Shown: positions 331 through 25,829 of the stretch, one piece after another
How positions within the stretch are numbered: position 1 is the first letter of the stretch
Layout: every line of letters begins with the position of its first letter
Source: a virus
Lineage: Duplodnaviria; Caudoviricetes
Length of the DNA: 32,219 nt
Strand: one strand, 5' to 3'
IMG/VR virus record: IMGVR_UViG_3300037195_001448
Span: 1-32,219 of that record
The notes under the pieces: generated by a model
Database searches by the model: none
Told to the model about the DNA's origin: nothing
Seen by the model: only the letters and a program-made list of their open reading frames with translations
Translations under genes and position numbers: made by a program

Positions 331-422
331 GGGTATTCGGGTGTCTGGTGTCAGGTGTCGGGATCAATCAAAACAGTGACGGGCAATTCGGGACATGGGT
401 TCAGGTGTCGGGATCAATCACA

Positions 423-1769
423 TCAGTCGAAACAATAAGTGACTGTCAAAACTCGTGTAGCCCCCAGGCGGTTTTTCAGGGTGAGGACTCCGGTGTCGTA
501 GTAGAGATCGACGTTGCCATCCATGTCTGCGTTCATGATCGCCATGCCGGTGGTGTAGTCCTGGGTCATGGACGTTCCGACACCGAAAAATCCGCCGGCC
601 TCGGCGTCGCCGGCGCTTACCAGCAGGTATCCGGTGGTCGTCGGGGATGGCAGAGTCAGGGTCTCGTCGTCGGTGAAACTCTTGGTAAATTTGAGGGTGT
701 GCTGTGTTCCCTCTTTGCCGGCGAAGATTAGGGTAGCGCCCTGCTCGGTCATCAGGTGCATGGCCGCGGTCCCTGCGCCGTCGTAATCATCTACCCATTC
801 CTGGACAATGTCTGCGGGCTGAGTGGTTGGGGCAGTGCCGGCCTTGATGCCCAGGACGCCGGCGGCGTTGGTGCCAAAGGTGTCCGCTCCATTCAAGCCT
901 ATATTGCCATCTTCCTGGACTCGATACAGTTCCGTGCCTGCCTCCAGGGTGGAGCTGTTGGAGTAAATGCCAAATTTTGCATCCGACTGATTGTTATTCG
1001 CATCAAGCTGGATGGAATAGTGCCCCGTGGAGACAGAGCCATATCTTTCGTGCCAATTGCTTCCGCCAAATTTCACCTTGGCGTCGGTGCTAAACTCCAG
1101 CTCGTTAGTGGTTTTGTCCCAGGTGAAATCCGCATCCCCTCCAAATGATCCGCTGTCGTTGAATTGAACCTGAGTATCCGCCCCGCCAGGCGTGCCGCCG
1201 CCCCCGCCCTGGGTGGTCTCTGTCCAGACGGCGGCGGTGGCCGTGGCATCGAGACACACGTATTCCTTGTCTGCCGTGGTATCAAACCACCGGGAGCCGA
1301 CCGCATACCCTGAGCCGCTGTCGTCGGTGGCCACCGGTGCCACGGATGCCGACCGGTTGCTTTTCGGCTCGGTGATCTCCGTCCAGTCCAGGTCGGTGGT
1401 GTCCAGGGTGTAGCTGGCCGCATAGTCCAGACCATACATTTTGCCCGCATTGGCCGTGCCCTGCATGACGAAGACGATAATCCCGGCCCGGATCTCGTTG
1501 GTGTTGTCCAGGTCGTGCCGGCGTGTCCAGACCCCATCCGCCCCGGTCCCCAGCGTTGTAACCTCGTAGATCCCATTCTCGCTGGCATCGGTCTGGCTTT
1601 TCACTAGGACCCAGTCGTATTGTGCCACCGGATTAATACCGTCCACGTTGTCCGGGGCTCCCGCAGCCAGGTCGGCGATGTCCGCCGTCGTGGCTACCCG
1701 GCAGGCCATGCGCAGCGGGGGGAGGAGGAGTTCGGGGCGGACAAGTTGGAGATCTGCGTAGAGAGCCAT
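423..1769 (-). CDS. Tail fibre / virion appendage protein (448 aa)
   Basis: Gly/Thr/Asp-rich mosaic with modules typical of phage fibres (VLVKSQTDASENGIY..WTR; GYAVGSRWFDTT; PGGADTQVQFNDSGSFGG); follows tape measure. Confidence 0.7.
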   Translation of the reverse strand: MALYADLQLVRPELLLPPLRMACRVATTADIADLAAGAPDNVDGINPVAQYDWVLVKSQTDASENGIYEVTTLGTGADGVWTRRHDLDNTNEIRAGIIVFVMQGTANAGKMYGLDYAASYTLDTTDLDWTEITEPKSNRSASVAPVATDDSGSGYAVGSRWFDTTADKEYVCLDATATAAVWTETTQGGGGGTPGGADTQVQFNDSGSFGGDADFTWDKTTNELEFSTDAKVKFGGSNWHERYGSVSTGHYSIQLDANNNQSDAKFGIYSNSSTLEAGTELYRVQEDGNIGLNGADTFGTNAAGVLGIKAGTAPTTQPADIVQEWVDDYDGAGTAAMHLMTEQGATLIFAGKEGTQHTLKFTKSFTDDETLTLPSPTTTGYLLVSAGDAEAGGFFGVGTSMTQDYTTGMAIMNADMDGNVDLYYDTGVLTLKNRLGATRVLTVTYCFD

Positions 1770-1832
1770 GGGGGGCAGGTGTCGGGTGTCAGGTGTCTGG
1801 TCAGAGAGAGATTATCTCTCGAATCTGCGGAT

Positions 1833-4295: not shown

Positions 4296-4550
4296 GGAGA
4301 GACGGGTGGGGAGACGGGTGGGGAGACGGGTGTCTGGTGTCGGGTGTCAGGTCAGAGAGATTATCTCTCGAATCTGCGGAACCGTTGGGGAGAATGATAT
4401 GGTTGTAGGTCGAACTAAGAGTGTCCTTGTCCCTCCCTGACACCCGACACCTGACACCCGACCCTTGTCCCACCCTGACACCTGACACCCGACACCTGAC
4501 ACCCGACCCTTGTCCCACCCTGACACCCGACACCCGACACCACCTACCAC

Positions 4551-4940
4551 CTACTTCTTCCTCTCCTTCGCATCCAGCACCTCGTCGATCTTGACCTTCA
4601 GATACTGGCTGGCCTCGACGAATATGTTGGCCTGCTGGTTCAGGCCGCCGGGGACGGGGGGGAGATCGGGCCAGGCACGGTAGGCGGTGAGGAAGGGATC
4701 GCCGAGCTGGCGGGCGCAACGGTTGGGGCAATCCCGTATGTCCTCTCTCCCAGTTCCGGAGCAGACGGAGCAATCGGGATCACCCATGCCGTTGCAAGAC
4801 GTGCAGTCTATTTCCATGAAAGGCGCTGCCGCCGGGCCATCGCAGCCCCAGTCTGCCCGGTATTTCGGGTCATTCCAGCAGAGCCGGCAGGTAACGTTTA
4901 AGTCGCCACAGCTTGCCACTGCGGCGAGTGTCAGTTTTTT
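4551..4940 (-). CDS. Tail assembly chaperone gpT-equivalent, expressed by -1 frameshift from the upstream gene
   Basis: No good start of its own; in the -1 frame after slippery A AAA AAC (4934-4940); ends just before tape measure. Confidence 0.75.
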   Translation of the reverse strand, partial: KKLTLAAVASCGDLNVTCRLCWNDPKYRADWGCDGPAAAPFMEIDCTSCNGMGDPDCSVCSGTGREDIRDCPNRCARQLGDPFLTAYRAWPDLPPVPGGLNQQANIFVEASQYLKVKIDEVLDAKERKK

Positions 4941-5422: not shown

Positions 5423-5477
5423 GGGCGTTGTCCTCCGGGTTGAAGAAAGTGGTCAGGTGTCTGGTGTCAGGTGTCGG

Positions 5478-5773: not shown

Positions 5774-5834
5774 CGTTTCATGCTGCAGGGTACCAGCGAC
5801 CCTCACCCCGGCCCTCTCCCAGAGGGAGAGGGGG
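5774..5834 (+). repeat. REP-like element CGTTTCATGCTGCAGGGT..ACCCTCACCCCGGCCCTCTCCCAGAGGGAGAGGG
   Basis: Other copies at 10330-10388 (-), 7265-7300 (-, partial) and 10460-10483 + 11173-11210 (+, split by the cassette). Confidence 0.85.
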
Positions 5835-5839
5835 ATTTG

Positions 5840-7237: not shown

Positions 7238-7422
7238 AGGTAGAATCCTTTAAAAAGTTTTTCTGGGTGAGGGTCGCCTGGAACCCTGCAGCATTTAACG
7301 CTAATTATCTTCGGATCTGCGGATGTGCTAGGTCGGGGGAGGGGTGTCAGGTGTCGGGTGTCGGGTGTCTGGCTCGGAAGGGCTGGCGATGGCTCTCGAC
7401 ACTGACACCCGACACCCGACAC

Positions 7423-7761
7423 CTAGATGACTTCCTCGATCACCACCGAAATATCGACGGCCGTAGCGGTCTTGTGGGCGAGCCGCACGGGGGCGGCGAA
7501 GCGGTAGTTGCCGCTGCTCTCGCCGGGTCCTGGGGGTGTCCAGGTGAAGGTCGCCGATCCGCCGAGCTGGTCGTGATAAAGATCTTCTACGGCCTTGGCG
7601 TGAAACCGCGATCGATTCGGCCAGGTGATGCTCCACCTACGGCCCTTCAGGGGAGAAACCCTGGTCGCAATCGCTACCCCGCTCTCCGGATCGGACCGGC
7701 GCTGGCGGTAGGTGTGGCGGACCGTGTAGCGGAGTGGGTTTGCGATGGGGAACGAAGCCAT
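7423..7761 (-). CDS. Minor tail protein, lambda gpM/distal-tail-like (112 aa)
   Basis: Size, R.WSITW, F.WTPP motif and C-terminal IEEV resemble gpM-type proteins. Confidence 0.55.
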   Translation of the reverse strand: MASFPIANPLRYTVRHTYRQRRSDPESGVAIATRVSPLKGRRWSITWPNRSRFHAKAVEDLYHDQLGGSATFTWTPPGPGESSGNYRFAAPVRLAHKTATAVDISVVIEEVI

Positions 7762-7790
7762 GGCGTCAGGTGTCAGGTGTCAGGGTTGAA

Positions 7791-8303
7791 CTACGTGTAT
7801 GGATCGTCATACACGTAGTTGTATTGCATCCGGATCGAGATGGGGACGATGCACCAGGGCTCGCCTTCATCATCCTCGGCCTCCATGACCATCCAGTCTC
7901 TTACCTGGGTCCAGACTACTGCCCCGCCCAGGGGGGGGTCGGCCATGATGGCTTTCTCGATGTCGCTCACAAAATCATCGGCCAGGTCGTCGGTCTCGGT
8001 GTCTGAATCGTCCTCCTGGTCGTGAACGAAATAGAGGATGGCCAGCACGTCTAGAAACCTTTCGGTTTCGTTGGCGATGCTTTCCTCTCCCTCGACTTCG
8101 ACCATGGCGTTGCCCTCGGTGGTGAGTATTACCAGCGGGAGGGTGTTGAAGTCGTTTACCTGGAATTCCGTATCGCCGGTAACCTTGCGCTTCCGGTATT
8201 TCTGCACGCTGTTAATGTCCCGCTGGTACCCGTTGGCGACGGTGACGGTGGCGATGCGGGTCTGAAGGGCGTCTGTGGCGAGGCGGCGTTTTGAGGAGGC
8301 CAT
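7791..8303 (-). CDS. Tail terminator / tail-completion protein (170 aa)
   Basis: TVTVANGY..DI motif; acidic; upstream of tail tube. Confidence 0.65.
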   Translation of the reverse strand: MASSKRRLATDALQTRIATVTVANGYQRDINSVQKYRKRKVTGDTEFQVNDFNTLPLVILTTEGNAMVEVEGEESIANETERFLDVLAILYFVHDQEDDSDTETDDLADDFVSDIEKAIMADPPLGGAVVWTQVRDWMVMEAEDDEGEPWCIVPISIRMQYNYVYDDPYT

Positions 8304-8339
8304 GGGGTGTCAGGTGTCAGGTGTCGGGGAGACCAGCTT

Positions 8340-8538: not shown

Positions 8539-9255
8539 TTACGCTCTCTTTCTTAGTCCTTGATTCCAGATCCGGATGGCCTTTTGGGCGGCTTGCTGGA
8601 TCCGCTGGTTCGGAAATTGCCCCAGGGCTCGCCAGGTCTTGTAGAAGTTCAAACCGGGGTTGCGAAGGGTGACCTTTTTCCTCAGCACAAAGATCGGCAC
8701 TATCTCAGTGCCACGGATGCGGGGCTTATAGAAGACCACCCCGTCACGGATGAAGGATTTTCGCTTATCGAGGTCGCTCCATTCGGCATAGGGCTTTTTG
8801 AACTTCTTACGGGTCTTCCCCCGCATGGTCTGCACGATCGGCCCTGGGATGGGCACTCGGAGGTATCTGGCCTCCTGCGGGTATATTGTCCCACCGAATT
8901 CCTGATATTCCGCCACGTTGCTGCGGGAAAGGATGTTCAGGGACATGTCCAGGGCGTTGGCCTGGGTGAGGGCCAGCCGCTCGACCAGGCCCTTGCGCTC
9001 GTCCGATTGCTTTCCCACCCCTACCCCACGGTTGCCCACGTTCACGTATCCCCGGAATTTCCCGTAAAGGGATTTCCGGAACGGCCGGGCCAGATTCAGA
9101 TCCAGATTGGAAAGCCAGCTTTTGAAAAACTTGCGCTTGATGTGCAGCAGCCCGTCGCCGAACTGGTAGGCGAATTGATTGGGGGCGGTCTGCATGGCGT
9201 GCAGGACCTCCGCCATCTGAATCTTGATTACTGGGCGGAATTGTTTTTTAGCCAT
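8539..9255 (-). CDS. Neck / tail-completion (virion morphogenesis-like) protein (238 aa)
   Basis: Basic protein with AEYQEFGGTI.P...YL.VPI motif; head-tail connector position. Confidence 0.6.
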   Translation of the reverse strand: MAKKQFRPVIKIQMAEVLHAMQTAPNQFAYQFGDGLLHIKRKFFKSWLSNLDLNLARPFRKSLYGKFRGYVNVGNRGVGVGKQSDERKGLVERLALTQANALDMSLNILSRSNVAEYQEFGGTIYPQEARYLRVPIPGPIVQTMRGKTRKKFKKPYAEWSDLDKRKSFIRDGVVFYKPRIRGTEIVPIFVLRKKVTLRNPGLNFYKTWRALGQFPNQRIQQAAQKAIRIWNQGLRKRA

Positions 9256-9321
9256 GGGGGAGGGTGGGTGAGGTCAAAACAACACACTGGTTTTTAGCCA
9301 TTGGGGAGGGTGGGTGTCAGG

Positions 9322-10319: not shown

Positions 10320-10413
10320 AATCTAACCTCCCTCTCCCTCTGGGAGATGGCCGGGGTGAGGGTCGTGGGAACCTTGCAGCATGAAACGTCTATTCTAAAT
10401 CGCCTCTGCGGAT

Positions 10414-11172: not shown

Positions 11173-11218
11173 CTACCCTCACCCCTGCCCCTCTCCCAGA
11201 GGGAGAGGGGATTTGGGA

Positions 11219-11293: not shown

Positions 11294-12313
11294 TTATGCC
11301 GTGTCGATGTCCACGAGGACGGCCTTTCGGAAGTCGCCGAACTGGACCACCCGGTCGGACTCGATGCTGACCCGGATGCCACCGGTATTGAAGTGGTGAT
11401 CGCTGTCCGTGCCCAGGACCTTGACGGCGAAGGACTGGATCTCGCTGAGGGTCTCCGGCCGCTCGCTCTCGTTTGCCTGGGGCGGCTGAGCGCCACGGAT
11501 GAAAGCGGGCAGTCCCTGGGCTGTGTCGTCGTTACGCACGACCACCAGCTTGTCCGTCCATGTCAGAGCGACGTTGATGCTCATGCTCATAGAGAGCTGC
11601 TGGCCGGCGATGCCGCTGTTCAGGGCGACAAGGGTATTGTCCCTGGCAGCACCTCCGGAGGTGGCGAGAAGGGCCGCGCTGAATGCCTTCAGGGCGATAT
11701 CCCAATACTCGATTGGAAGCATCACATGCACGCTTTTCATGCCACGGTTCACCTTGCGGCCCTGGCTGTCTTTCTGCTGGTAGAGCTGCTTTATGCCGGC
11801 GAGGATGGCCTTTTCCATCTCGTCCGGAGTCGGGGCAGTGGCGTCCACCGCATCGTAGGTGATGGAGTTGGAGAAATTGCCCGATGCGCCGAATGAGTGG
11901 GTCGTCGAGAAATAGGTCTGCGCATCGAAACTATTGGTGCTCGTGCCGAGCTCCATCTTGGTGGTCAGCAGATCTTCCCAGTGGCGGACCGGCTCATCGG
12001 CGAAGTCGGAGATGAGGGCTTCGTTGACCCGGCCCTTGCCGAGTCTCCACTGCTTTCGGGCGAAATCCAGGGTCCCCTCATAGGGCGAAACCTCGAATGA
12101 GGTCTCGATCTCGCCAAGGGTTACCGGCTGTTTCTCGCCGTCCCATGCCCGCATCTTCGGGGTTGCGGCTGGCCAGGCGATCTCTTCGAGATCCTGGTTG
12201 CTACCCCAAATGGGGCCGGTGAAGGGCAGAATGAAGGATGATAGCTCCGCATGCTCGATTTTCTCGATCATGCGCCCGATGACGTATCGGTCGGTGAGTC
12301 GTTCGAATGGCAT
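11294..12313 (-). CDS. Major capsid protein, Mu gpT-like (339 aa)
   Basis: P.MR.W.GEK, YEGTL, FDAQTYFSTTH and D..GR.VN motifs; follows protease and decoration genes. Confidence 0.8.
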   Translation of the reverse strand: MPFERLTDRYVIGRMIEKIEHAELSSFILPFTGPIWGSNQDLEEIAWPAATPKMRAWDGEKQPVTLGEIETSFEVSPYEGTLDFARKQWRLGKGRVNEALISDFADEPVRHWEDLLTTKMELGTSTNSFDAQTYFSTTHSFGASGNFSNSITYDAVDATAPTPDEMEKAILAGIKQLYQQKDSQGRKVNRGMKSVHVMLPIEYWDIALKAFSAALLATSGGAARDNTLVALNSGIAGQQLSMSMSINVALTWTDKLVVVRNDDTAQGLPAFIRGAQPPQANESERPETLSEIQSFAVKVLGTDSDHHFNTGGIRVSIESDRVVQFGDFRKAVLVDIDTA

Positions 12314-12452
12314 CTGATTGCCTCCGGTTCATGGTTAAGCGGATGAAAAATTCGTCCGTGTCCCGTGTCCGGAGACGTTGTTTTCCGGTCTCACCCGCAG
12401 GCGGTGGCCTGCGGGTGAGGGTTTCAGGTGTCTGGTGTCGGGTGTCTGTCTG

Positions 12453-13283: not shown

Positions 13284-13348
13284 GATATGGGACCTCTATT
13301 TATGAGTGAAGGGATCGTAATTCGTGTGATTCGTAATTCAGAAGAGAG

Positions 13349-14956
13349 CTAGTCGTCCTTTTTGCCTCGGAAGTTCTGGATCATGCCGTCCTTATCGGCC
13401 TTGATGTAGGCTGCCCAGACGCTGGCCTCGCTGAACTCTGCCCGGACATCGTCCGGCTGGGCGTCGAATGCTTTCTGGACCGCTTGCTCGTCTTCCCAGT
13501 CCAGCTCCTCGATGCTCGGTTGCTGCTGCTGGCCGTGGGTCTCGTCGCCGGTGGGGGCGGGAAGGTCCGGAGCGCCGCCGAGTGCGGTGCGCTTCTCCCG
13601 GTCAGCCTCCAGGGCCGCGGTGGTGTCCGTAATATCTTCACCGTCGGCGATGCAATCGATGCCGACCTGGTGGCAGGACATGTCATTGGCGAGGGTGGCG
13701 ATATGGCGGCAGCGCTTGCGCTCGTTCTGCTGCCCGTTGGAGTATCCGATCTGCAGGCCCCGGTCGTAACCGTTCTGCTCGGCCTCGGCCTCGGCTTCGC
13801 CAATGGCGGCGTCTATTGCCTCTTCGGAGGTCTTCTCGCCTTCGGTTCGCCCCTCGGCGAGCCCTTCCTCGTGTCCCTGGACGTAACCTTCCGTCTTTGC
13901 CTCTTCGTAAACTTCGGGGAGTTCCGCTTTGAGGGTTTCAAGATCCATAATCGATGTCTCCTTTGGGTCTGGTTGGAGTTGTTGTTCGGTGATGCCGGAT
14001 ATTGACGCACCGATCTGAGGATGTGCAAGATCGTAATCGGGGCTGAGGTGTCGGGTGTCGGGTGTCGGGTGTCGGGCCGAAGACGAAGCCTGGTTTTTCC
14101 TGCGGGGGGTTCTGCCGTTCTGGAGACCTCGCAGGGTGGCCTCGAATGTTCCGATGCGGTCGGCCAGGCCCGCCCTTACTGCCCGCTTGCCTACCAGCAT
14201 GTCTCCCTGGCCAAACTTGCTGAGCACGGTTTCCTTGTCTACGCCCCTGTATTTGGTTACGGCAGAGATGAAAACATCGGCCAGGTCGTCCACCTGCTGT
14301 TGAATGATTGCCCTGCCCTCGTCGCTGGTAGGTGTGGCCCGTTTTTTCGGGGACTGGGAGCTGACGATCTCTATCTCCTCAACGCCAAGTTTTTCGTCGA
14401 ACTTCGTATAGTCCGTATAGGTGCTCACCACTCCGATACTGCCGAGCATTGCGGATGGGGCGATGACGATCTCGCCGGTGGCGGAGGGTATCCAGTAGGC
14501 GGCGCTTGCCCCCAGGAAGCTGACGTAAGAAGCGACGGGCTTTTTCCTCTGGGCTTCGTGGATGCTCTGGGCGAATTCGCCGATGCCGTCCACCTCGCCG
14601 CCTGGAGAATCGATATCCATCAGGATGGCCGTCACGTCTGAAGCCTCGACCGCCGTATTGAAATCCTCGAACATCCGATTGAGATCGGTCGCCCCGCTCA
14701 TTGCCGAGAAACCGGAAGCCCGGCGAAAGATAGGGCCTGCAATGGTCTGGATGGCGACACCTTTTCGGACGCTAACCCCCCGTGTCCCTTTCAGGCGCTC
14801 GCCCCGTTGGGCCTGCATGGCTTCCATGGGCGGCAGCTCCAGGGCCTCCCTGTAGTTGATGGGGGTGGCGTCTCTGTTAGCAATGGCAAGGATGGTGCGC
14901 AGAGCTTCCGGGTGAATGGCCCAGGGAATGGAACAAGCTAGTTCGATGGCTTTCAT
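13349..14956 (-). CDS. S49 (SppA-like) prohead protease fused to a C-terminal scaffold
   Basis: DIDSPGGEV, ASAAYWI, GSIGV, GLADRIG motifs; acidic C-terminal scaffold region. Confidence 0.92.
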   Translation of the reverse strand: MKAIELACSIPWAIHPEALRTILAIANRDATPINYREALELPPMEAMQAQRGERLKGTRGVSVRKGVAIQTIAGPIFRRASGFSAMSGATDLNRMFEDFNTAVEASDVTAILMDIDSPGGEVDGIGEFAQSIHEAQRKKPVASYVSFLGASAAYWIPSATGEIVIAPSAMLGSIGVVSTYTDYTKFDEKLGVEEIEIVSSQSPKKRATPTSDEGRAIIQQQVDDLADVFISAVTKYRGVDKETVLSKFGQGDMLVGKRAVRAGLADRIGTFEATLRGLQNGRTPRRKNQASSSARHPTPDTRHLSPDYDLAHPQIGASISGITEQQLQPDPKETSIMDLETLKAELPEVYEEAKTEGYVQGHEEGLAEGRTEGEKTSEEAIDAAIGEAEAEAEQNGYDRGLQIGYSNGQQNERKRCRHIATLANDMSCHQVGIDCIADGEDITDTTAALEADREKRTALGGAPDLPAPTGDETHGQQQQPSIEELDWEDEQAVQKAFDAQPDDVRAEFSEASVWAAYIKADKDGMIQNFRGKKDD

Positions 14957-15182: not shown

Positions 15183-16856
15183 CTAATTACGCACATGAAT
15201 CCCATTACCAGACGTGAGATTCCCGCCCTGCACGAGGATCATGGCTGCCATCTGGTTAACCATTTCGTTCAGGGTGGCTCCCTTGGCTTCCTCGTCTGTG
15301 GCCTCCTCGCCGACCAGTGGGCGGATTTCCTCCCGCTCTTTTTTCCACTTACGAATTGTCTCCTTGCTGCGGAGACCGAGCTGGCGATGCACCCGCTCAT
15401 AAGTAAGAAAACCATTGTTGACCATGGTCTCGTAGGCGCTGGCCTCCTTATCCGGGTCGAGAAGATCGTAGGGAGGATGGGGTGTGGCGATGCGGCCCCA
15501 GGCGATTGGGTTCTCAAAATACATGGCCGAGGTGAACCAGGCCGGGAGCTGGGGCATGCCTCGCACCGTGCGAGCGCGGACCATCTCCTCAATCGCCCAG
15601 TCCCAATGCACCTGGTCATACCGCTGCATGTAGCCCAGGTAGACAATGAATTGTTTTATCGCTTTCAACGTCATGGCTCGTGCGGTGCTGAAATTTGCAT
15701 CATTAAATAAATGCGGCCAGACCACCCCGCCAGCCATCCCGATAGTGCCCGTAACGGCATTCAGACACTCGCCCAGGAATACCCGATAGTCGTCGCTGTC
15801 CTGGCCTGGGAGGAACGGCTTCACGGTTTCGCCCGGAGCCGTCCCCATGAACGTCCCCGGCTCGAATTTGTAGTCGTAGAATCCGGGGTCTGTGGCGACC
15901 TTTGCCGGGTTCTGCAGGTCGTCCTGCGATTTCCGTTTCAGGGCCTTTATCAGCCGGTTCGGTGTGGTCGGGGATTCAAAGAAGACCATCAGACAAGCCA
16001 TAAACCACTTGCGGATCTCGTAGGCTTTCCGGGTGTTGCCGATGACCTTCAAGTCATCCAGGGCCGCGGAGAGCTCCGGGATGCCCCTGTCCTGTCCCAG
16101 CTCCTTCAACTTGGCCAGGTGGATGAACTGCACCCGGTCGAATTCGTCCCGGATGTCGATGGTCTTGAAGTTGCCGGATATGGCCGCCCTGTTCGGATCG
16201 ATGCGGTAGTAGGCTTTAATGGCCGTCCCGTCGATATCCCGCTCGAAACCGTCCTGGATGCGCTTTTCGCTGAGCTTGTCCGTGGGGGTGAGGATGTTTA
16301 TGGGTTCCAGGAGTTTGCTCCGGAACATGAACGGCTGGGTTTTCCTGCGCTCCCGCTGCACCACCTCGGCGGCGATCTCGCCACGATTGAACAGGGAACG
16401 AAAGGCGAGCTGGCGCTCCACGGTGTATGTGATGTCCCGCTTTGCCGGCCCGTTGGCGGCCCATACCTCGAATCCGTTGCTGGCCGCCTCGCACCAGTCC
16501 TCGGCCTGCTCCTCGCTGATACCCAATTGGTCAGGGTCTATATCCGCATAGGGATAGAACTCGTGGCCGGCGATTGATGCGACCAGTGACTCCACCAGGC
16601 CGGAGGCGTAGCCATTTGTCCGTGCGAGCTCTGCCATCTTGAGCTGCATCTCTTCCCGGTTCTCGCTGATGTCTTCAGCGGGAGATGCGGCCATGGATTG
16701 CCAGGTATTGGCGATCATCCGGGAGAAGGCATCGTTTCCGGCCTTCCGATTGCCTCCGGTAATGGCCTCGATGGTGGTCCGGCGGGCCCGATACTGGGCG
16801 GCCTGGTAGCGCTTGCGCTCGAAGTAGGCGGCGATTGGGGAGAAGGGGTTGAACAT
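15183..16856 (-). CDS. Portal protein, lambda family (start taken as MFNPF at 16856)
   Basis: L.R.NGYA.G, Q.RGIP.L and NFSTAR motifs, DP.KEA; the in-frame upstream extension is only repeat sequence. Confidence 0.92.
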   Translation of the reverse strand: MFNPFSPIAAYFERKRYQAAQYRARRTTIEAITGGNRKAGNDAFSRMIANTWQSMAASPAEDISENREEMQLKMAELARTNGYASGLVESLVASIAGHEFYPYADIDPDQLGISEEQAEDWCEAASNGFEVWAANGPAKRDITYTVERQLAFRSLFNRGEIAAEVVQRERRKTQPFMFRSKLLEPINILTPTDKLSEKRIQDGFERDIDGTAIKAYYRIDPNRAAISGNFKTIDIRDEFDRVQFIHLAKLKELGQDRGIPELSAALDDLKVIGNTRKAYEIRKWFMACLMVFFESPTTPNRLIKALKRKSQDDLQNPAKVATDPGFYDYKFEPGTFMGTAPGETVKPFLPGQDSDDYRVFLGECLNAVTGTIGMAGGVVWPHLFNDANFSTARAMTLKAIKQFIVYLGYMQRYDQVHWDWAIEEMVRARTVRGMPQLPAWFTSAMYFENPIAWGRIATPHPPYDLLDPDKEASAYETMVNNGFLTYERVHRQLGLRSKETIRKWKKEREEIRPLVGEEATDEEAKGATLNEMVNQMAAMILVQGGNLTSGNGIHVRN

Positions 16857-17111
16857 CCGGGGCAGGTGTCGGGTGTCAGGTGTCAGGGTAAGAAAAACCA
16901 GACCAGACCAGACCAGACCAGCGCCAGCGCAGGCGGGGAGCTTCGCAATCCCCGCCTGTTCGGCGCTGGGGAATCTGGCCAAGTGTTCAGATTATCTGAT
17001 GGATCTGCGGATATGCCCGGACGGGGCTGGGTGTCAGGTGTCGGGTGTCGGGTGTCGGGCTGAAAGATCGGCGGCCTGGAGACCACCGTGCGCAGCATGC
17101 CGTTGGCACTA

Positions 17112-17198
17112 CTAAGATTTGAAAAGGCGGCGGAAACCCCTGTAAAAGGTCACCGCAATGGCGATGAGGATATCGATAAATGCGTCAATCAGAATCAT
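17112..17198 (-). CDS. 28-aa hydrophobic peptide MILIDAFIDILIAIAVTFYRGFRRLFKS
   Basis: Read manually; ATGA-coupled to the upstream ORF; TM-like segment plus basic tail. Confidence 0.45.
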   Translation of the reverse strand: MILIDAFIDILIAIAVTFYRGFRRLFKS

Positions 17199-17506
17199 GT
17201 AAACTGTACCTTCGACACCTGCCAAACGCCACACCTGGGGCACGCCATCGTCTTGCGCACGGGCTGGTCACACCTACGGCAATAATAAACCTCGACGCCT
17301 TCTTCAGCCTCTTCCATATCCACATACATATAGCCCTGATTCCCTTCAGGATAGGGATACTTGCTCGCAATCGCTGGCAGATGGGGGGTAGCTAGAATAA
17401 TCCGGCTCAAAACACCGGGATCGTCAGGAGACCCAGGGCCAACCGCAAACCCATTTGGGAAACGCTCCATCAACTCGCTCACAGTAGTATCAGATTCAAC
17501 AATCAT
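17195..17506 (-). CDS. Accessory zinc-ribbon protein (CRRC...CPRC)
   Basis: Lower GC; between 46/47-bp direct repeats. Confidence 0.6.
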   Translation of the reverse strand: MIVESDTTVSELMERFPNGFAVGPGSPDDPGVLSRIILATPHLPAIASKYPYPEGNQGYMYVDMEEAEEGVEVYYCRRCDQPVRKTMACPRCGVWQVSKVQFT

Positions 17507-17629
17507 CGTTGTTTTCCGGTTAGGCGAGACGGCCCCTCGGCCTTTCCTGACACCTGACACCTGACACCCGACCCCAGCCCCAGAACGGCGGCCTGGAGAC
17601 CACCCGTGCGCAGCATGCCGTTGGCACTA

Positions 17630-17851
17630 CTACCCAATCGCCACCCCGATCTCCGCTGTGCCGGAGGCATCGGAATTGATTATGTTCGTAAGTTCTCGCT
17701 GGCGCTCGTAAAGGGTTGGTAAGTCGAGCATCAGGTACCGGTTGCGGTGACCCGGCCCGCCAGTCTCCTTATCTTGCACCTTCCCGGTGAGAATGCTATC
17801 GATGGCGGCCTCTACGAGGGCGAGTTCTGTTGTGGCTCGTGCGGTGGTCAT
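17630..17851 (-). CDS. Head-to-tail joining protein, gpW-like (73 aa)
   Basis: L..VEAAI..IL.G...Y...DL..L...R.EL pattern; upstream of a lambda-type portal. Confidence 0.75.
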   Translation of the reverse strand: MTTARATTELALVEAAIDSILTGKVQDKETGGPGHRNRYLMLDLPTLYERQRELTNIINSDASGTAEIGVAIG

Positions 17852-18024
17852 GGTGGTATTCGGGTGTCTGGTGTCGGGTGTCAGGAAGATCGGGACGTAG
17901 GAATAATTATAGCGTCAACTTGCGTTTGTGGTTTGCGATGGCTTCCAGTTCGTTGGGCATGGTTTTCTCCTATTTTTTCTCCCGGAGGAAAAGTTCTTCG
18001 CGGGCCGGTTTTCAGAAACAAACG

Positions 18025-19683
18025 CTATTCCAGCTCCTTGCCGACAGGGATGAAGGGAAGCTGCTGCTCCTCGATGTGCAGGACGATGGAGTCCGCCGCT
18101 TCGGTGACTCCGAGCAGGGGGTTACCTTCCCGGTCTCCTACAGCGGTCTCCGGTGGGCATCCGGACTCTTCGATTTCGTGGCAGGCGGCGTGAAGGTTGT
18201 CGAGCGTCCACGGCTTGGGCCGCGCCGGGCTTTCCTCCGGAGGCGTGACTCCAACTTCGGGGGCTTCAGCTTCGCCCGACACCTGACCACTGACACCCGA
18301 CACCTCTTTCCCCTTCTTCCCCTTCTTCTTCTCCCGGAGAAAGGATTCTTTGCGACCGATTTTCCAGACCCAGACCTCCTCGCCGAGGTCCGGGCCGTGG
18401 ACCACCAGGGCCGGATTGGCGTCGCGGTCCCCGTCTTCGGTCGAATACTCGGAGTCGTCGCAGATCTCGTATTCCCAGGTGTTCAGGGCGGCGCTGGCCT
18501 TGTAGGCTTCCGGGGGTATCTCGCCGGGGGCGCTGTTTACGAAGAGCAGCTCGAGCCGGCGGTCGTCCAGCCCGCTCTTGCCCCGCTCTATTCTCTCCTC
18601 CTCGATGGCCTTCCGAATCTCGGTCTCCCGCTGTTTCAGGACTCGGCGTTCCTTCTCGCCCCAGCATTGCGGGTTGGTGCAGCGGGCCTTCGATTCGGGC
18701 ACCTCGCCGAAGAGATCCATCTGGCTGCCGGTGTTTCGGGGGCAATCGGTGCAGGCTCCCGCTTTGGGATAGAGGGCGTCATCGCTCAGATCCCATTTGG
18801 CCTGGGTAAGTTTGCGGGTGTGCTTGTCGATCGATTCCTGCAGCTCGAGGACCGCCATGGTCTCGATGTAGCCCGGATCGTCGGCGTGCCACTGTTTGAT
18901 CTCGCTCAGGACCGCGGGCTGGGTCTCGAGGTGCAGGGCCGCGATGCGCTCGTAATGGCTGGGGGTCCACCGGCTGAACGGGCCGGCCCCATCGAGCCAC
19001 TCTGCCCGCCATTCCTTTCCCAGCCGGTTCAGCCCGATCTTGCGATAGTAGCTGGTCTCGGAGAGGTGCAGGCGGGCACATACCTCTTTGACTGTCCAGT
19101 GATGGGTCCGGCACTCTTCCAAAGTCTCGGCCTCTTCCAGGGGGTGCAGCTCCTGGCGGTGCATGTTCTCGACGACCAGCACCTCGAAGGCTTCCGCATC
19201 GGTGAGGTTGCGGACCGTGGCCGGGATCTCGGCCAGGCCGGCGACTTTCGAAGCCCGCCACCGGCGCTCCCCACACACGATCTCGTAATCAGTAGTCTTT
19301 TCGAGGGTGACGTTTTTATTCTCTCTGACGACGATGGGCTGGATGATGCCATAGGTCTTGATGGATGCGACCAGCTCGATGAACTTCGGATCGGTCTCGT
19401 CGATGTATCGGTGGTTGGATTTGTTGCTGCGGATGTTTGAGAGGGGGAGGAGCATGGTGCCGGGATGAAGAGGGGTGTCGGGTGTCGGGTGTCGGGTGTC
19501 GGGAAGGACGGGGGTGTCGGATGCGAAACGGGGAAGCCATTGTTTGAGCCATGGGATGTTCGGGGGGCCGAGATGCCCCTCCATACGGTAGGCGGCGGCG
19601 GCCTGGCCGGGGGTGATTGTGCGGCCTTCGTATTCGGCGTTCTGGCCGGAGTGGAGGGATTTGGCGGCGGAGGTGAGGGTCAT
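18025..19683 (-). CDS. parB: ParB/RepB/Spo0J-family protein (ParB domain starts at Met 19455; extra N-terminal segment in frame)
   Basis: LVASIK.YGIIQPIVVR, YEIVCGERRWRA, EN..R.EL.PLEEA; GACTDCP..TG Cys cluster. Confidence 0.88.
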   Translation of the reverse strand: MTLTSAAKSLHSGQNAEYEGRTITPGQAAAAYRMEGHLGPPNIPWLKQWLPRFASDTPVLPDTRHPTPDTPLHPGTMLLPLSNIRSNKSNHRYIDETDPKFIELVASIKTYGIIQPIVVRENKNVTLEKTTDYEIVCGERRWRASKVAGLAEIPATVRNLTDAEAFEVLVVENMHRQELHPLEEAETLEECRTHHWTVKEVCARLHLSETSYYRKIGLNRLGKEWRAEWLDGAGPFSRWTPSHYERIAALHLETQPAVLSEIKQWHADDPGYIETMAVLELQESIDKHTRKLTQAKWDLSDDALYPKAGACTDCPRNTGSQMDLFGEVPESKARCTNPQCWGEKERRVLKQRETEIRKAIEEERIERGKSGLDDRRLELLFVNSAPGEIPPEAYKASAALNTWEYEICDDSEYSTEDGDRDANPALVVHGPDLGEEVWVWKIGRKESFLREKKKGKKGKEVSGVSGQVSGEAEAPEVGVTPPEESPARPKPWTLDNLHAACHEIEESGCPPETAVGDREGNPLLGVTEAADSIVLHIEEQQLPFIPVGKELE

Positions 19684-19692: not shown

Positions 19693-19765
19693 TTCGTAGC
19701 GGTGGTCTCCAGGCCGCCGTCCGGGCTGGCCGAAAGATCGGCGGCCTGGAGACCACCGCTACGAA
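19693..19765. repeat. GTAG-type REP doublet (27-bp perfect inverted repeat)
   Basis: TTCGTAGCGGTGGTCTCCAGGCCGCCG and its reverse complement; related copies at 17069 and 17586. Confidence 0.85.
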
Positions 19766-19769: not shown

Positions 19770-20198
19770 TCAATTATTCATCGGGTCGAAGGGTTCGGGC
19801 CGCGGGCCAGTGTCATCGAGATCCAGGACAATGTCGTCGCCTGGTATCAACGGCTCGCCATCGATGATGGCGGGCGGGATTGGGACTATTGGGATCAGGG
19901 CTATGGCGATGGCAGCGCCGATGGCCCTGCGCATGATCTCCTCTGGTTCGGCTTTGTTATCGTATCCGATCTGGAGTATGGCCAGGGGCTCTATCATGTT
20001 CTCGTCGCTCTTCAGGTGCTCCTTGAGCAAGGTATTTACCCAGGTGCATATCGCATGGCGGGCAGCCTCGATCCATGCGTCCTGGAGGCTTGGGCATAGG
20101 TCGCCGAACTCCTTGATCGGGAGGTCGTCGTCCGGTTTCAGTGACCGGAAGAACTCTGTGTATGCTCTGGCAGCGATTGGGGCGAGGATGGTGTTCAT
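19770..20198 (-). CDS. Hypothetical protein (142 aa)
   Basis: ORF with a heptamer array directly before the ATG. Confidence 0.65.
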   Translation of the reverse strand: MNTILAPIAARAYTEFFRSLKPDDDLPIKEFGDLCPSLQDAWIEAARHAICTWVNTLLKEHLKSDENMIEPLAILQIGYDNKAEPEEIMRRAIGAAIAIALIPIVPIPPAIIDGEPLIPGDDIVLDLDDTGPRPEPFDPMNN

Positions 20199-20455
20199 GG
20201 TGTCGGGTGTCGGGTGTCAGGTGTCAGGGTTGGGACAACGTCGTCGTCGTCTTCGGGGTTACATTCATCGCAGCCGGGGCACTCGACCTCTTCGTGATTG
20301 TGGCAGACGCACAGATCTCCTCCGCATTCGCAGTGGATTATCCCCAGGCCGCCGCATGGGCCTGGCGGGAAATCGTCTGCGAACAATTCCTCGTAGGTGC
20401 CTGTCGTTCCGCACCAGCAGGTAATCAGATCGTCTTCTATCTTCGGGGCGTCCAT
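20195..20455 (-). CDS. Cys-rich small accessory protein
   Basis: CWC, C.CGGDLCVC, CPGC motifs; C-terminus runs through a heptamer array. Confidence 0.6.
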   Translation of the reverse strand: MDAPKIEDDLITCWCGTTGTYEELFADDFPPGPCGGLGIIHCECGGDLCVCHNHEEVECPGCDECNPEDDDDVVPTLTPDTRHPTP

Positions 20456-20661
20456 GCTGTTTTCCGGTGGTTTTACGCAGGTTTTCAGATTCCACACATC
20501 CCCGAGCACTCGAATCGAAAGTTCATCTGGCCAGATTTCTCGTCAATAGTGGCGATGAGAATTTGAGTTGTCTGGCCTGTTCGATGTTGTTCATTTTCAG
20601 ATTACGAATTACGGACAAGGATTCGATCACACCTGACACCTGACACCCGACACCTCATGAC

Positions 20662-22770
20662 CTACTCTTCCATCTTCCATCCCCCGCCTCCGCCTCCCCA
20701 GTCGCTGGTATCGACCATGCCGCCCCAGTCGCTGTAGTCTTCCCTCCTGGCGCTCTCCACGGCTCGCATACTGCGGGCGGTCTCTACTTCGAGCTCCTGC
20801 TGGGTGGGCTCTGGCATCTCATACTCGCAATCCAGATAGGTGCCGGCGCAGAGGTTGTAACAGAGGGTGAAAAGGGAGTGGTCGGCGATGCCGGCCTTTT
20901 TGGGCTCGTATTGCTGGATCACTATGGACGATTTGGCGCTCTGCTGGCGGCGGGTGAAGTGCCACGCCGTCAGCTCGTCCAGGTAGTCCTCCTCGATGTC
21001 CTGGTAGACTTGGAGCCGGGCGTGGCCGGCGTTCTCCGGGGTGAGCAATCCCAGGGCCTGGCCGATGTATTTGAACTTACCCCAGACCCATTTTTGACGC
21101 CCGCCGATGATGTTCTGCCCCTGCTGGTCCCGCTCCGCATTGCGGGGGAAAAGATCGCTGCCGCCGCTCTGCTGGGCCGCATCCCGCTTGCCGTAGATGT
21201 TGCCCGCCTGCTCCGGGAACGTGTCTGTAAACTCAAATACGGCGTTCGGATCGTAGGCGCAGTCGATGAACGTATAGGTGATGACGTAGTTTGCCGTCCC
21301 ATCCACACTGTGGTAGCGCTTCACGAATAGGCGCTGCTCCAGCTCTTCCCAGGTCTCCACCCGGTCGATCCCCACAATCCAGATCCGTCCCTCGTAGCCC
21401 CAGGCCACGACCATCAGGCGCAGGTAGCCTTTCTGCACGTCCACCCCGCCGGTGAGGCCCAACGCCTCGTCCGGCACCTGCCACTTCTCGTGTGTTCCCT
21501 GGCAGCGCTCGCGTACGTCCTTTGATTCGGCGGAGCGGATGGCCGGGGAGAATGGCTCGCCTTCCCAGGAGTTTTTAAAGTGCTTTCGCTGGTCCTGCTT
21601 GTTGCGGCTCTGGCGATACTTCACCGCAAACCTGCCCAGGGGGACGATGGTGCTGTATTGGGTGCCGATCTGGTAGGAGATATTCATCTGCGGCGGGCAT
21701 TCGCCACGGTTCAGATTCTCGACCGCGTACTGGCGTAGCCGGGTCATGTCCCCTTCGAGCAGAGCATCCCCATCCGTGCCCACGATCTCCCGGTCGATCT
21801 CTGCCAGGCGGTTCCGGGTTGCGGGCAAGTGGTCTGCGATGTGCTCCTCCACGTCCCGAAAATCGACGTGCTGGTTGCGCAGATCGTGGGCCTGGGGGAT
21901 CCAGATCCCGAACTCCAGCATTCGCCGGCGCTCCCTCTCGTTCATGGGGTGGGCGCATTGCTCATCGGCGCAGACGTGCCGGGCGAGGTTGTTCTCGATA
22001 ATCGCCTGGTGGCTGGCATCCTTGGGGGCGATCACCCGCTGCCGTTCGATGAGCTGTAGGAGCCCGCATTGGGGACAGGGAACATGGTACCGGCGCTGGT
22101 CACCGCCCACATACTCGATGTGTATTCGCCCGTCCTCCGTGGTCGGGGTGCAGACCAGTATCACCAGCGAGGTGTGCGGGAAGTTCTTGACTCTCTCGTC
22201 CGCAAGGTCTACCGGGTGAGCCTCCTCGCTGTTTGGATTCCATCGGATTTTATCGACCTCGTCGATGACCAGTAACTCGATGGGGCGCTCGGAAAGTTTG
22301 CCGGGTGTGGCCCAGACGTAGCCCAGGCCGTTGCGCTCGTCGTTGGCGAGCCGGATGGAGCATCCCTGGTGGTCTCTCACCGCTCCGGTGGCGTGCCGGC
22401 GCAGCCTGGCGATGCGGAAGAGTGGTTTAACTCTCCGGTCGAAGAAATCCTTACAGTGGTCCTCTGAATCGATAACGTGGAGCTGGGGGCCGGGCGCTAC
22501 GTCTGACTTCCATCCCTGGACTCCTATGTAAATGGCGGTCTTCCCCACCTGCGCTGCCCATTGGAGCACCATGCGCCGGACCCGCCGCTCCGCTGCCATG
22601 TCCATGGGCTCCCGGGAGTAGGGGGTGAGGGTGGTAGAGTATTGCTCCCGGAGAACCGATTCGCCGAGCTGCCGCCAGAACCGATCGCACCATTCGGATG
22701 GCAGGATATCCTGCGGGGCAGCCCAGGCGGCTTTGTCTGCGGGAGACCAGATGGGGGTGGCGAGAGCCAT
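20662..22770 (-). CDS. terL: Terminase large subunit, lambda GpA family (702 aa)
   Basis: Walker A AQVGKT, Walker B LVIDEVD, CTPT coupling motif, VPCPQCG, nuclease GVDVQ. Confidence 0.96.
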   Translation of the reverse strand: MALATPIWSPADKAAWAAPQDILPSEWCDRFWRQLGESVLREQYSTTLTPYSREPMDMAAERRVRRMVLQWAAQVGKTAIYIGVQGWKSDVAPGPQLHVIDSEDHCKDFFDRRVKPLFRIARLRRHATGAVRDHQGCSIRLANDERNGLGYVWATPGKLSERPIELLVIDEVDKIRWNPNSEEAHPVDLADERVKNFPHTSLVILVCTPTTEDGRIHIEYVGGDQRRYHVPCPQCGLLQLIERQRVIAPKDASHQAIIENNLARHVCADEQCAHPMNERERRRMLEFGIWIPQAHDLRNQHVDFRDVEEHIADHLPATRNRLAEIDREIVGTDGDALLEGDMTRLRQYAVENLNRGECPPQMNISYQIGTQYSTIVPLGRFAVKYRQSRNKQDQRKHFKNSWEGEPFSPAIRSAESKDVRERCQGTHEKWQVPDEALGLTGGVDVQKGYLRLMVVAWGYEGRIWIVGIDRVETWEELEQRLFVKRYHSVDGTANYVITYTFIDCAYDPNAVFEFTDTFPEQAGNIYGKRDAAQQSGGSDLFPRNAERDQQGQNIIGGRQKWVWGKFKYIGQALGLLTPENAGHARLQVYQDIEEDYLDELTAWHFTRRQQSAKSSIVIQQYEPKKAGIADHSLFTLCYNLCAGTYLDCEYEMPEPTQQELEVETARSMRAVESARREDYSDWGGMVDTSDWGGGGGGWKMEE

Positions 22771-22858
22771 TAGTAGAGGGGTGTCGGGTGTCGGGTGTCG
22801 GGTGTCAGGGGTCGGGTGTCAGGTGTCGGTTCAGCCTCCCGTAAGCAGTTCCTTGCAT

Positions 22859-23218: not shown

Positions 23219-23247
23219 TCTGTTGTCCTCCGGGTTAGGGTTACGGA

Positions 23248-23832: not shown

Positions 23833-23875
23833 GGCTTCTTCTCCGAGTTACGAGTTACGAATTACGAATCACGAA

Positions 23876-24691
23876 TCACGTGTCCCAATTGGAATTGGGA
23901 CCTACCTCTGCTACCGCTTCCTCCAGCCCATCCCAGGCGTCCTGGGTGATCTCTCCTTGGTCGTGCCTCGAATCGATGAGGGCACGGGCGGCCTCGGCCA
24001 GGGACTCCAGGCGGCGCATGTGCTCGTATGCCTGATTGGCGTGATCGTCGTCTATCACCTGGCGGAATACGTTGGCGCTCCACTGGTGCAATGCCTGGCG
24101 AAGCTCGAACTCCTCCATGCCCGCCCATGTGGTGGCGTTGGTGTCCAGACGCAACAGGGGCGAGCGCATGGCCAGGATGCGGGCACCGTTGAGCCGGTCC
24201 ACGGCGTCCCGCTCCATCAGCCTGCCGTTTCTCTCCCCGGCGTCGGCCTGTTTGATCTCCATCTCGGCTTTGAGCTTTTCAAGCTCCAACTCTTCCTTTT
24301 CGGGAGCTTTGGTGTGAAAGCGCTTCTGCTGGATGGTCTCGGCGACGAAGATCGTGAAGCTGATCCAGGGCAGCCCATGATCGGACTCCCAGTCGATGTC
24401 GTTTTTCCGGCAGTGTGCCCGCCAGGAAGCCACCCATTGCCGGATCGTGCGCTCGTCCCGCTTCTCGATCTGAGCGGTCCAGATATCCGCATAGAGGCGC
24501 TGGGTGGGGCAGTGGCCTGGCCGGACATCTCCGGCGATGAACGCCTCCAGCTCCTGCAGCTCGGCGACCTCCCCCTTGGTGAACCGGTGACCCTCGTGCG
24601 CCCGCCGGACCAGCTCCGCATGGCGGGAAGCACGGGCCGCGTCGATGGGCGACTGGGTGGTCTGTTCGTCGGTGGGGAAGAGGGTGTCCAT
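23876..24691 (-). CDS. terS: Terminase small subunit, Nu1-like (271 aa)
   Basis: HTH-like ERTIRQW, coiled coil LEKLKAEMEIKQ...GRLM; upstream of GpA-type TerL. Confidence 0.7.
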   Translation of the reverse strand: MDTLFPTDEQTTQSPIDAARASRHAELVRRAHEGHRFTKGEVAELQELEAFIAGDVRPGHCPTQRLYADIWTAQIEKRDERTIRQWVASWRAHCRKNDIDWESDHGLPWISFTIFVAETIQQKRFHTKAPEKEELELEKLKAEMEIKQADAGERNGRLMERDAVDRLNGARILAMRSPLLRLDTNATTWAGMEEFELRQALHQWSANVFRQVIDDDHANQAYEHMRRLESLAEAARALIDSRHDQGEITQDAWDGLEEAVAEVGPNSNWDT

Positions 24692-24712
24692 GGGGTCGCC
24701 GGGTGTCAGGTG

Positions 24713-24970
24713 TCAGGTGTCGAGGTGGGGGTTGCGTATGTTTTCCAGGACATCGAATTCGGCGGGGCGGAGGCCGAGGGGTTCTCCGTTGGTGGCCGTT
24801 ACCGATACGGCCCCCCACTGATTGGATTCGCATTCATAGTCGCCTGGTTCAGCCCGGACATGACCAAACGGCGGATCGCCTGTGACGGTATGGAGAAGGC
24901 GGACACGGCTGGGAACAAATTGGGGGCGAGGCGGTAGCTGAGGGTCTTCGGGTTTTTTCTGATTACTCAT
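24713..24970 (-). CDS. Hypothetical protein (85 aa)
   Basis: ORF coupled (TAATG) to the upstream peptide. Confidence 0.6.
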   Translation of the reverse strand: MSNQKKPEDPQLPPRPQFVPSRVRLLHTVTGDPPFGHVRAEPGDYECESNQWGAVSVTATNGEPLGLRPAEFDVLENIRNPHLDT

Positions 24971-25083
24971 TACGCATTACGGATTAGGTTCCACACCAGC
25001 CAGCAGATAGCGCCGGCGGCCAGGAGGTAGTAGAGGATCTCGATGGGACGGAATTTTTCATCGGGTGGCTGGGGCAGGTTCAT
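24970..25083 (-). CDS. 37-aa membrane peptide (MNLPQPPDEKFRPIEILYYLLAAGAICWLVWNLIRNA)
   Basis: Read manually; fills the gap, one TM segment. Confidence 0.45.
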   Translation of the reverse strand: MNLPQPPDEKFRPIEILYYLLAAGAICWLVWNLIRNA

Positions 25084-25774
25084 TGCTTGGGGTCAGGTGG
25101 ACGTAAGGAGCGCCGGTAAGGGCGCTTTTCTCTTTCCCGCTCGGCTTGAATTCCCAGATGTTCCGCTCGCCGGTGGCCGGGACGTAGACCGGGTTCTCCC
25201 TTACAGCGCTGAAGTGCCAGGCGAATCCGCTCGGCGAAGGAAGGTAGTGCAGCTCCTTCTTGCCGAATTTCGTCTCGTTGCAGCGGCTGGTTCTGTCCAG
25301 CCAGCCCACTCCGAGGATCTGCCCCCTCGGCAGCTCCTCGCCGTCCCGCTCCCATCTGTTCTCAGAATTCAGGCTCAGCCCGTATCGGGCGAAGTCGGCC
25401 TGCACCTGCTCGTCCGCCGCCAGGGCGACACTCTCCTGGCAGGTGTATCGGCTGGCGTGCAGCCCCATGGTGCCCCGGTAGGTCTTCTCGAACCATTTGG
25501 TAATGAAGTGTTTTGTAGCGTGCCAGACCAGCAGGCTGGCCCAGGGCTGCGGGATGCTGATGCACTTCAACGGCCGGGCCAGGATCTGCTCATCGACGAC
25601 CAGCCAGGTGCCCTCGCAATCGATTTCGCAGCGGTTCATGTGCAGGAGATCCCAGCGAGGCGGATCGTAGGGCGAGTAGCCGGAATACTTGCGCATCTCG
25701 GCCTGGGAGATGTGATCGTTGTCACCGCGGGGCTTAGTCCGGAGCTTTGGATTTCGTGGGTCTCGGCGGGGCAT
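25058..25774 (-). CDS. ASCH-domain protein
   Basis: SI.QPWASL, YRG...LHAS, LPRGQILG, FAW, G...IW motifs. Confidence 0.8.
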   Translation of the reverse strand: MPRRDPRNPKLRTKPRGDNDHISQAEMRKYSGYSPYDPPRWDLLHMNRCEIDCEGTWLVVDEQILARPLKCISIPQPWASLLVWHATKHFITKWFEKTYRGTMGLHASRYTCQESVALAADEQVQADFARYGLSLNSENRWERDGEELPRGQILGVGWLDRTSRCNETKFGKKELHYLPSPSGFAWHFSAVRENPVYVPATGERNIWEFKPSGKEKSALTGAPYVHLTPSNEPAPATR

Positions 25775-25829
25775 GGTTTGTTCAGGTGTCGGGTGTCGGG
25801 TGTCGGGTGTCGGGTGTCGGGTGTCGGGG

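Follow-up and report, generated by a model that had tools for sequence, protein, structure and literature searches.

The 32,219-nt stretch of DNA analyzed here in full (hereafter the window) is IMG/VR record IMGVR_UViG_3300037195_001448 (Duplodnaviria; Caudoviricetes), a fragment, ∼45% complete, of a lambda-like temperate phage in which tandem arrays of the 7-nt unit GGTGTC[G/A/T] stand between, and often directly before, the genes. The sequencing runs containing the window sequence were marine or seawater metagenomes. Head, tail, and packaging genes and a ParB-like gene are transcribed leftward throughout, and the leftward genes also include those for an S49 protease, the tail tube, the tape measure, and three DNA methyltransferases. 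A temperate lifestyle is indicated by an integrase remnant and an att-like half of tRNA-Phe at the right end; tRNA gene calling returned no tRNA in the window. The main landmarks are:

11294-12313, minus strand: major capsid gene
15183-16856, minus strand: portal gene
20662-22770, minus strand: terminase large subunit gene
31583-31888, right end of the window: C-terminal integrase remnant (PF00589)
about 32033-32077, right end of the window: att-like 3′ half of tRNA-Phe

In total, 24 arrays of the heptamer were found, 22 of them with at least three exact cores, in line with the ∼22 arrays of the original prediction, which had been made from the sequence alone; order-4 Markov simulations (n = 200) yielded no array with at least three exact cores (mean 0, maximum 0). 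The tandem 7-nt structure of the window arrays was confirmed, with units GGTGTCG (42), GGTGTCA (32), and GGTGTCT (8). Seventeen arrays read GGTGTC on the plus strand and YGACACC on the leftward mRNA (“outward”), and seven read GACACC on the plus strand and GGTGTCR on the mRNA (“inward”); the single mRNA sense CC[U/C/A]GACA that had been proposed is thus correct for the former and wrong for the latter. All arrays lie at or within protein genes and none was located in rRNA; some fall within open reading frames (ORFs) or 33-106 nt from starts, and 12 of the 17 outward arrays have no inward partner. The inward arrays are not start-associated and are found near or at the stops at 4551, 7423, 17630, and 20662, with one within the ParB-like ORF. 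The arrays are termed arms in the following list, in anticipation of their classification below.

340..359, minus strand: outward arm of three units, ending 9 nt before ATG 330; the array-to-ATG spacer is common with the array before 17851
1778..1797, minus strand: outward arm of three units, 8 nt before ATG 1769 of a tail-fibre/decoration-like gene; the upstream flank is common with 4329
4329..4541, minus strand: paired hairpin before the tape-measure gene, with an outward array at 4329-4348 and three inward arrays at 4439-4541, where 45 nt are duplicated in tandem
5456..5475, minus strand: outward arm 33 nt upstream of ATG 5422; the SD module CCGGAGGAC comes after it (SD, Shine-Dalgarno)
7343..7423, minus strand: empty cassette hairpin, with the inward arm (7404-7423) at a stop codon, a 34-nt spacer, and the outward arm (7343-7369)
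7762..7781, minus strand: outward arm directly abutting ATG 7761 (0 nt)
8306..8325, minus strand: outward arm 2 nt before ATG 8303 (tail terminator)
12420..12446, minus strand: outward arm 106 nt upstream of the major capsid start, an ATG with an SD core
14047..14073, minus strand: outward array within the S49 protease ORF, in frame and translated ARHPTPDTRHL; the flank is common with 7343 and 17030
16865..16884, minus strand: outward arm 8 nt before the portal ATG 16856
17030..17575, minus strand: 103-aa ORF (17195-17506) between an inward arm (17549-17575) and an outward arm (17030-17056), their pairing not significantly beyond chance
17863..17882, minus strand: outward arm 11 nt before ATG 17851
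18278..18304, minus strand: degenerate inward array within the ParB-like ORF
19474..19500, minus strand: outward arm 18 nt before the ParB-like ATG 19455
20199..20654, minus strand: inward arm (20628-20654) right after the terminase stop and outward arm (20199-20225) abutting ATG 20198
22780..22827, minus strand: seven-unit outward arm, 9 nt upstream of ATG 22770 of the terminase large subunit gene
24702..24721, minus strand: outward arm 10 nt before ATG 24691
25785..25825, minus strand: outward arm of six units, 10 nt before ATG 25774

Long-hairpin pairing of arms was seen for two pairs, 7343-7423 (−52.8 kcal/mol, z = −7.9) and 4329-4541, and for wider pairs p was about 0.08. The 103-aa ORF between inverted arms is not a four-helix-bundle protein, and the 86-aa ORF of the other enclosed interval reads through the outward arm at 20199-20225, its stop overlapping ATG 20198.

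Eleven of the 17 outward arrays end 0-18 nt before a start codon (binomial p = 4.7e-6 for ≤20 nt, against 15% of intergenic positions), specifically 9 nt before the start at 330, 8 at 1769, 0 at 7761, 2 at 8303, 8 at 16856, 11 at 17851, 18 at 19455, 0 at 20198, 9 at 22770, 10 at 24691, and 10 at 25774, so that seven of the 11 share a spacing of 8-11 nt. An SD core, defined as GGAG, GAGG, or AGGA 4-18 nt upstream of the start, was absent from all 11 array-adjacent starts and present at 18 of 29 others (p = 3.2e-4) in a set of 40 hand-picked starts from which two doubtful ORFs (4551-4796 and 24713-24970) were omitted; left of 25.8 kb alone, the figures are 0/11 and 10/18 (p = 0.0035). Mapping of arrays against starts, as the original prediction had proposed, therefore upheld its central claim, that at least 10 arrays end 0-20 nt before starts lacking an SD, at every one of the 11 starts it had named. 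Predicted RNA folding at −30..+20 was also weaker for the array-adjacent starts than for others (p = 0.0015), and weak folding widely characterizes non-SD genes according to passages of PMC5397173.

Other parts of that prediction were borne out less completely. SD cores are present at the major capsid, decoration, and several other late genes, and right of 25.8 kb, where the genes were described as having GGAGG-type ribosome-binding sites, 8 of 11 starts have an SD core and three do not. Among gaps of at least 25 nt between leftward genes, 17 of 25 left of 25.8 kb hold an array and none of three to the right (p ∼0.05, calculated by hand), which fits the proposed absence from 26-32 kb and is weak evidence for it because only three such gaps exist there. 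Arrays do occur at late genes, as stated; the array-bearing part of the genome also includes the ParB-like gene and unassigned genes. A second reusable start module, ACC(C)GGAGGACAAC or CCGGAAAACA, was observed before six genes (5422, 17506, 20455, 23218, 23538, and 27483).

Several junctions have more than the array in common. The array and flank at 330 are shared with 17851 up to the ATG, those at 1769 with 4329 and 16856, and those at 7343 with 14047 and 17030; in two of these cases, 330/17851 and 1769/16856, array and spacer are duplicated as far as the ATG. Because of this shared array-plus-flank sequence, junction modules appear to have been copied inside this genome, and such local copying is supported. 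The gaps are also populated by other repeats: five families, singly or together, occupy 23 of the 25 gaps of ≥25 nt left of 25.8 kb, and one of these families is a second heptamer, TCGTAAT/ATTACGA, located as follows.

23844..23880, no strand assigned: longest array of the TCGTAAT/ATTACGA family
near 13314-13330, 14959, 20601, 23241, 24970, and 29512: degenerate TCGTAAT/ATTACGA copies

To assess the spread of the unit, the GGTGTC-array pattern was matched to public sequences, yielding 83 viral stretches and ∼6,600 stretches in GTDB (extrapolated from 2 of 64 parts); the 121 GTDB loci returned span Planctomycetota, Desulfobacterota, Acidobacteriota, Gemmatimonadota, Chloroflexota, cyanobacteria, and others, and a three-unit array was present in 7 of 201 sampled Planctomycetota. 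The window is the densest carrier found, with 17 pattern matches compared with five or fewer at any other locus among the matches listed. GGTGTC arrays are neither phage-specific nor late-specific. Polarity, scored as an ATG opening ≥100 aa within 25 nt after the array (background 3-4.5%), was strong in the window (10/25 in the C sense vs. 0/25 in the G sense), in 80 GTDB loci (20/93 vs. 1/90), and in 80 viral loci (19/87 vs. 2/89).

In some chromosomes the same unit forms the arms of a small cassette around a four-helix-bundle gene (PF05635). In genome G005 such a gene is enclosed by a GGTGTCA-type arm and a GACACC arm, forming an intact cassette, and in G233, a Planctomycetota genome, an intact four-helix-bundle gene has 21 cores upstream and four downstream. 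All seven near-full-length copies of this GGTGTC-linked subfamily in G499, G485, and G512 have GGTGTC upstream and GACACC downstream, several of these cassettes beginning right after the upstream stop codon, and G003 contains at least 12 decayed copies, with GACACC downstream in 12 of 12 fetched (one non-independent family). The subfamily protein matched one of 151 Desulfobacterota-centred and five of 301 Planctomycetota-centred genomes and had no relative among viral contigs; a first Pfam scan covering 95 of 99 array-adjacent ORFs gave one PF05635 match. Since the gene is absent between them, the window arrays were classed as arms rather than complete cassettes. The two small ORFs between inverted arms in the window were considered as cassette cargo and rejected, the arm pairing around them being non-significant for intergenic positions (p about 0.08); Atlas matches for one of the two were below 0.9 and are a lead only. 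Two further observations concern the cassettes themselves: in G003 the GGTGTC-armed cassette is nested in an element with terminal inverted repeats of the GGTGTAAATCAAGAC type, present in at least 12 decayed copies and a possible vehicle of spread, and in G512 all three four-helix-bundle matches have in-frame TGA codons (2, 2, and 1), possibly reflecting TGA recoding or decay.

Cassettes and arrays were also recovered from other phages and proviruses. The second heptamer arms intact PF05635 genes in the phages G520 and G521, the latter complete at 119 kb. Three intact PF05635 genes lie in the tail region of G520 (G520:C1:4194-7283), two of them flanking an NlpC/P60-like gene downstream of the baseplate-hub gene, and the outward arm stops a few nt short of an ATG. 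In G523, 12 arrays of the second heptamer are listed within 9.9 kb of middle, lysis, and terminase genes, so dense punctuation is unique neither to the window nor to late genes. The proviruses G515 and G516, 70-80% identical, allowed orthologous junctions to be compared. At the terminase-portal junction both have a stop, a G-rich arm, a spacer, a C-rich arm, and a start, the hairpin being conserved in both, with the unit GGTGTCR in one and GGATGCR in the other; at a second junction one carries a full GGTGTC hairpin and the other the outward arm behind a different inward unit; and both have an outward array before the terminase gene. The unit was kept at two of the three aligned junctions and replaced at one; in this pair the arm layout is retained while the heptamer changes.

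No close relatives of the phage were found among viral contigs by terminase and capsid, and a portal search of metagenome contigs retrieved nothing but identical copies; the best other matches were 39% for the terminase, 30% for the capsid (in a Phycisphaerae metagenome-assembled genome), and 35% for the portal, and GenBank phages reached at most 28% among the best 10 of 352. The att-like tRNA-Phe half matched one of 301 Planctomycetota genomes, G233, with three mismatches, and none of the other genomes of its order (2) or class (25); a portal search around the group of G233 gave one 25% match. G233 was rejected as the host, the second heptamer being absent from 392 kb of its sequence.

The explanation we favor, with a probability of roughly two in three, is that the arrays are gene-less arms of a small bacterial four-helix-bundle cassette that were copied between junctions, the outward arm being kept as an unstructured, SD-free start region. 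The cassette would consist of a G-rich heptamer arm, the PF05635 gene, and a mirror-image C-rich arm, placed between a stop codon and the next start; the phage would have acquired copies as a prophage of a repeat-rich host, and the gene and inward arm would mostly have been lost by decay. The outward arm, which has only one or two G per unit and is self-unpaired, may then have been retained and copied because an open start region would permit SD-independent initiation by host ribosomes, and a passive translation benefit of this kind is plausible. The position of arrays before SD-less starts would follow from insertion geometry and filtering rather than from a phage late-control factor. This account draws directly on the identity of the unit with cassette arms, the polarity, the shared flanks, the absence of SD cores, and the weak folding, and it agrees best with one of the original suggestions, that the arrays are scars of a host repeat-adding process, for which four-helix-bundle cassette arms, seen with this unit in several phyla, are the candidate source. 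A bolder extension, offered tentatively and on balance doubtful, is that one arm of a selfish cassette, the outward one, was taken over by the phage as a portable start module that needs no SD and spreads by gene conversion. A third of the phage genes would thereby have a second route to initiation, one that depends on the architecture of the arms and not on the sequence of the unit, and that a four-helix-bundle protein of the host may gate.

Several results weigh against the cassette-arm explanation. No PF05635 gene was matched in the ∼45% complete record, and such a gene stands beside only three of 204 GGTGTC-array loci. The GGTGTC-linked subfamily is present in five of 50 array-bearing genomes, the arms of its copies in G308 and G004 consist of other, though related, units, and only one of 30 and one of 26 PF05635 loci in array-rich genomes use the GGTGTC unit, most of the 30 having other short-period arms that often end at the next ATG. 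Polarity was not significant in the 392 kb of G233 (2/14 vs. 0/14), and the second heptamer showed none in 76 viral loci (19/88 vs. 15/90). No host was identified by att-site, portal, or cluster look-ups. The density of three-unit matches is 993/Mb in the window compared with 5-31/Mb in G001-G005, 25/Mb in G309, 37/Mb in G233, and 80/Mb in G308, a 12- to 180-fold difference from eight chromosomes that were selected for carrying arrays and do not include the phage host, and 40% of C-sense arrays abut a start in the window compared with 22% in chromosomes; passive scarring explains neither difference. Against chromosomes, the density sets the window apart and the start polarity does not.

A dedicated translation element, in which an RNA-binding protein of phage or host recognizes the array by its sequence and brings ribosomes to late genes that have no SD, would account for the lack of SD cores at all 11 starts, the 8-11 nt spacing at seven of them, the copying of array and spacer up to the ATG, the extreme density in the window, and the outward array before the terminase gene in both G515 and G516, and passages of PMC4679880 make a like proposal for TAACTGA repeats. 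It is nonetheless unlikely: chromosomes of many phyla have the identical polarity, arrays also lie within ORFs and 33-106 nt from starts, orthologous junctions carry different heptamer units, genes whose products are in high demand, such as the capsid gene, have SD cores, and similar arrays occupy the middle and lysis region of G523. The late-specific form of this idea, as first put forward, is unsupported in view of the chromosomal polarity, the second heptamer in other gaps, and the differing units in G515 and G516.

Plain slippage-born 7-nt simple repeats without cassette ancestry, purged from genes and strand-filtered, are distinctly unlikely to suffice. An excess of heptameric simple sequence repeats (SSRs) and a slippage hypothesis appear in the passages of PMC4692102, most arrays anywhere lack a PF05635 gene, and one contig of run X6 is 7 nt shorter in the array that precedes the terminase gene and may represent a one-unit length variant (depth 4.6, possible error); yet slippage accounts neither for one unit seeded at 24 sites, nor for mirror-image pairs, nor for the tie of the unit to one protein subfamily across phyla. 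That the arrays are selected recombination linkers, short homologies kept to swap genes and morons, is very unlikely, even though distant junctions have common flanks, two small ORFs are enclosed by inverted arms, and dispersed-repeat recombination is described for Cluster O mycobacteriophages in part of PMC4351075. Direct arrays that span essential head and tail genes would in most cases produce lethal deletions, arm pairing around cargo does not exceed chance, and no joint between same-sense arrays of the GGTGTC unit was present among those listed for runs X4-X6 and X8, which were of low depth. Assembly artefact, a concern for repetitive DNA in a metagenomic contig, is largely refuted and highly improbable, given that L249-L251 match at 99.9-100% and without gaps across many arrays (possibly from the same source sample) and that contigs from other runs cross arrays unchanged.

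The window arrays are genuine and depart from chance; they form a variant, carried by a phage and unusually dense, of a repeat class that is already known but unexplained. The closest precedent is the intergenic direct heptamer repeat TAACTGA of marine Beggiatoaceae, cyanobacteria, and Bacteroidetes, which, in the passages of PMC4679880, likewise forms tandem arrays (2-6 units) in one orientation a few nt before starts where an SD is rare (about 10%); a translation role is proposed there and the mechanism of spread is stated as unknown. It differs in its unit (TAACTGA vs. GGTGTC[G/A/T]), its chromosomal setting, phages going unmentioned in that paper, and its far lower density, and those passages do not mention a four-helix-bundle link. 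Heptamer arrays next to SD-less starts are thus known already from a chromosome. The open-access literature yielded no paper tying heptamer arrays to phage gene starts, or to four-helix-bundle genes outside rRNA. Within rRNA, the S23p intervening sequence of 23S rRNA carries a PF05635-type ORF between ends that are complementary, with a variable number of tandem heptamers at the 5′ end (PMC4990558, in part); it is excised by RNase III, whereas the window arms lie between protein genes, are mostly solitary, and contain no PF05635 ORF. Heptameric SSRs of Xanthomonas and Nostoc (short tandemly repeated repetitive type) resemble the window arrays as intergenic 7-nt arrays of about four units, some in inverted pairs and variable between relatives, but the portions of PMC4692102 concern GGG-run units discussed as G-quadruplexes, in other hosts and reported absent from Nostoc plasmids. 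The Start Associated Sequences of Cluster K mycobacteriophages are also oriented repeats immediately upstream of many phage starts (PMC3203893, in part), but each consists of just one SD-like motif of 13 bp that phages conserve and the host almost entirely lacks, whereas the window arrays are tandem, SD-free, widespread in bacteria, and labile.

For the intergenic heptamer arrays of bacteria, a long-unexplained repeat class, what is new here is the phage setting, the intact cassettes in a tail operon, and the replacement of a heptamer at an orthologous junction. The swap in G515 and G516 and the tail-gene cassettes of G520 indicate entry of the element into phage operons and its rapid turnover, so that its source and mobility can be tested, and the window unites 11 natural starts without an SD and 18 with one in a single genome, where initiation can be compared directly.

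Other repeats were noted in the window. Palindromes resembling repetitive extragenic palindromic (REP) sequences, CCCTCACCC/CCCTCTCCC, occur at 5774-5837, 10325-10388, and 11176-11209, two of them seeming to provide the SD-like G-run of the next gene, and two N6/N4 methyltransferase genes near these palindromes break up the head-tail operon. REP/REPIN-RAYT elements combine a short palindrome with a linked Y1 transposase (RAYT, REP-associated tyrosine transposase); no RAYT family was among the matches of 44 window ORFs in a general family scan, and no search aimed at RAYT was made. A GGCGGCCTGGAGACCACC element with a common 29-nt tail is present at 17058-17114, 17575-17632, and 19701-19758, an exact 48-bp duplication at 27485 and 27798, and ∼50-bp tandem duplications at 346-427 and 9255-9320. 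At the right end, only the C-terminal part of the tyrosine integrase lies next to the att-like tRNA-Phe half, and the prophage is possibly defective; five to six 22/23-bp repeats of the CGCAGTAGAGCGCG type at 31430-31548, direct and inverted, separate the repressor-like gene from this remnant and are possible operator, arm-type, or iteron sites. Finally, one contig in each of four runs has a 24-nt deletion at window position 27928.

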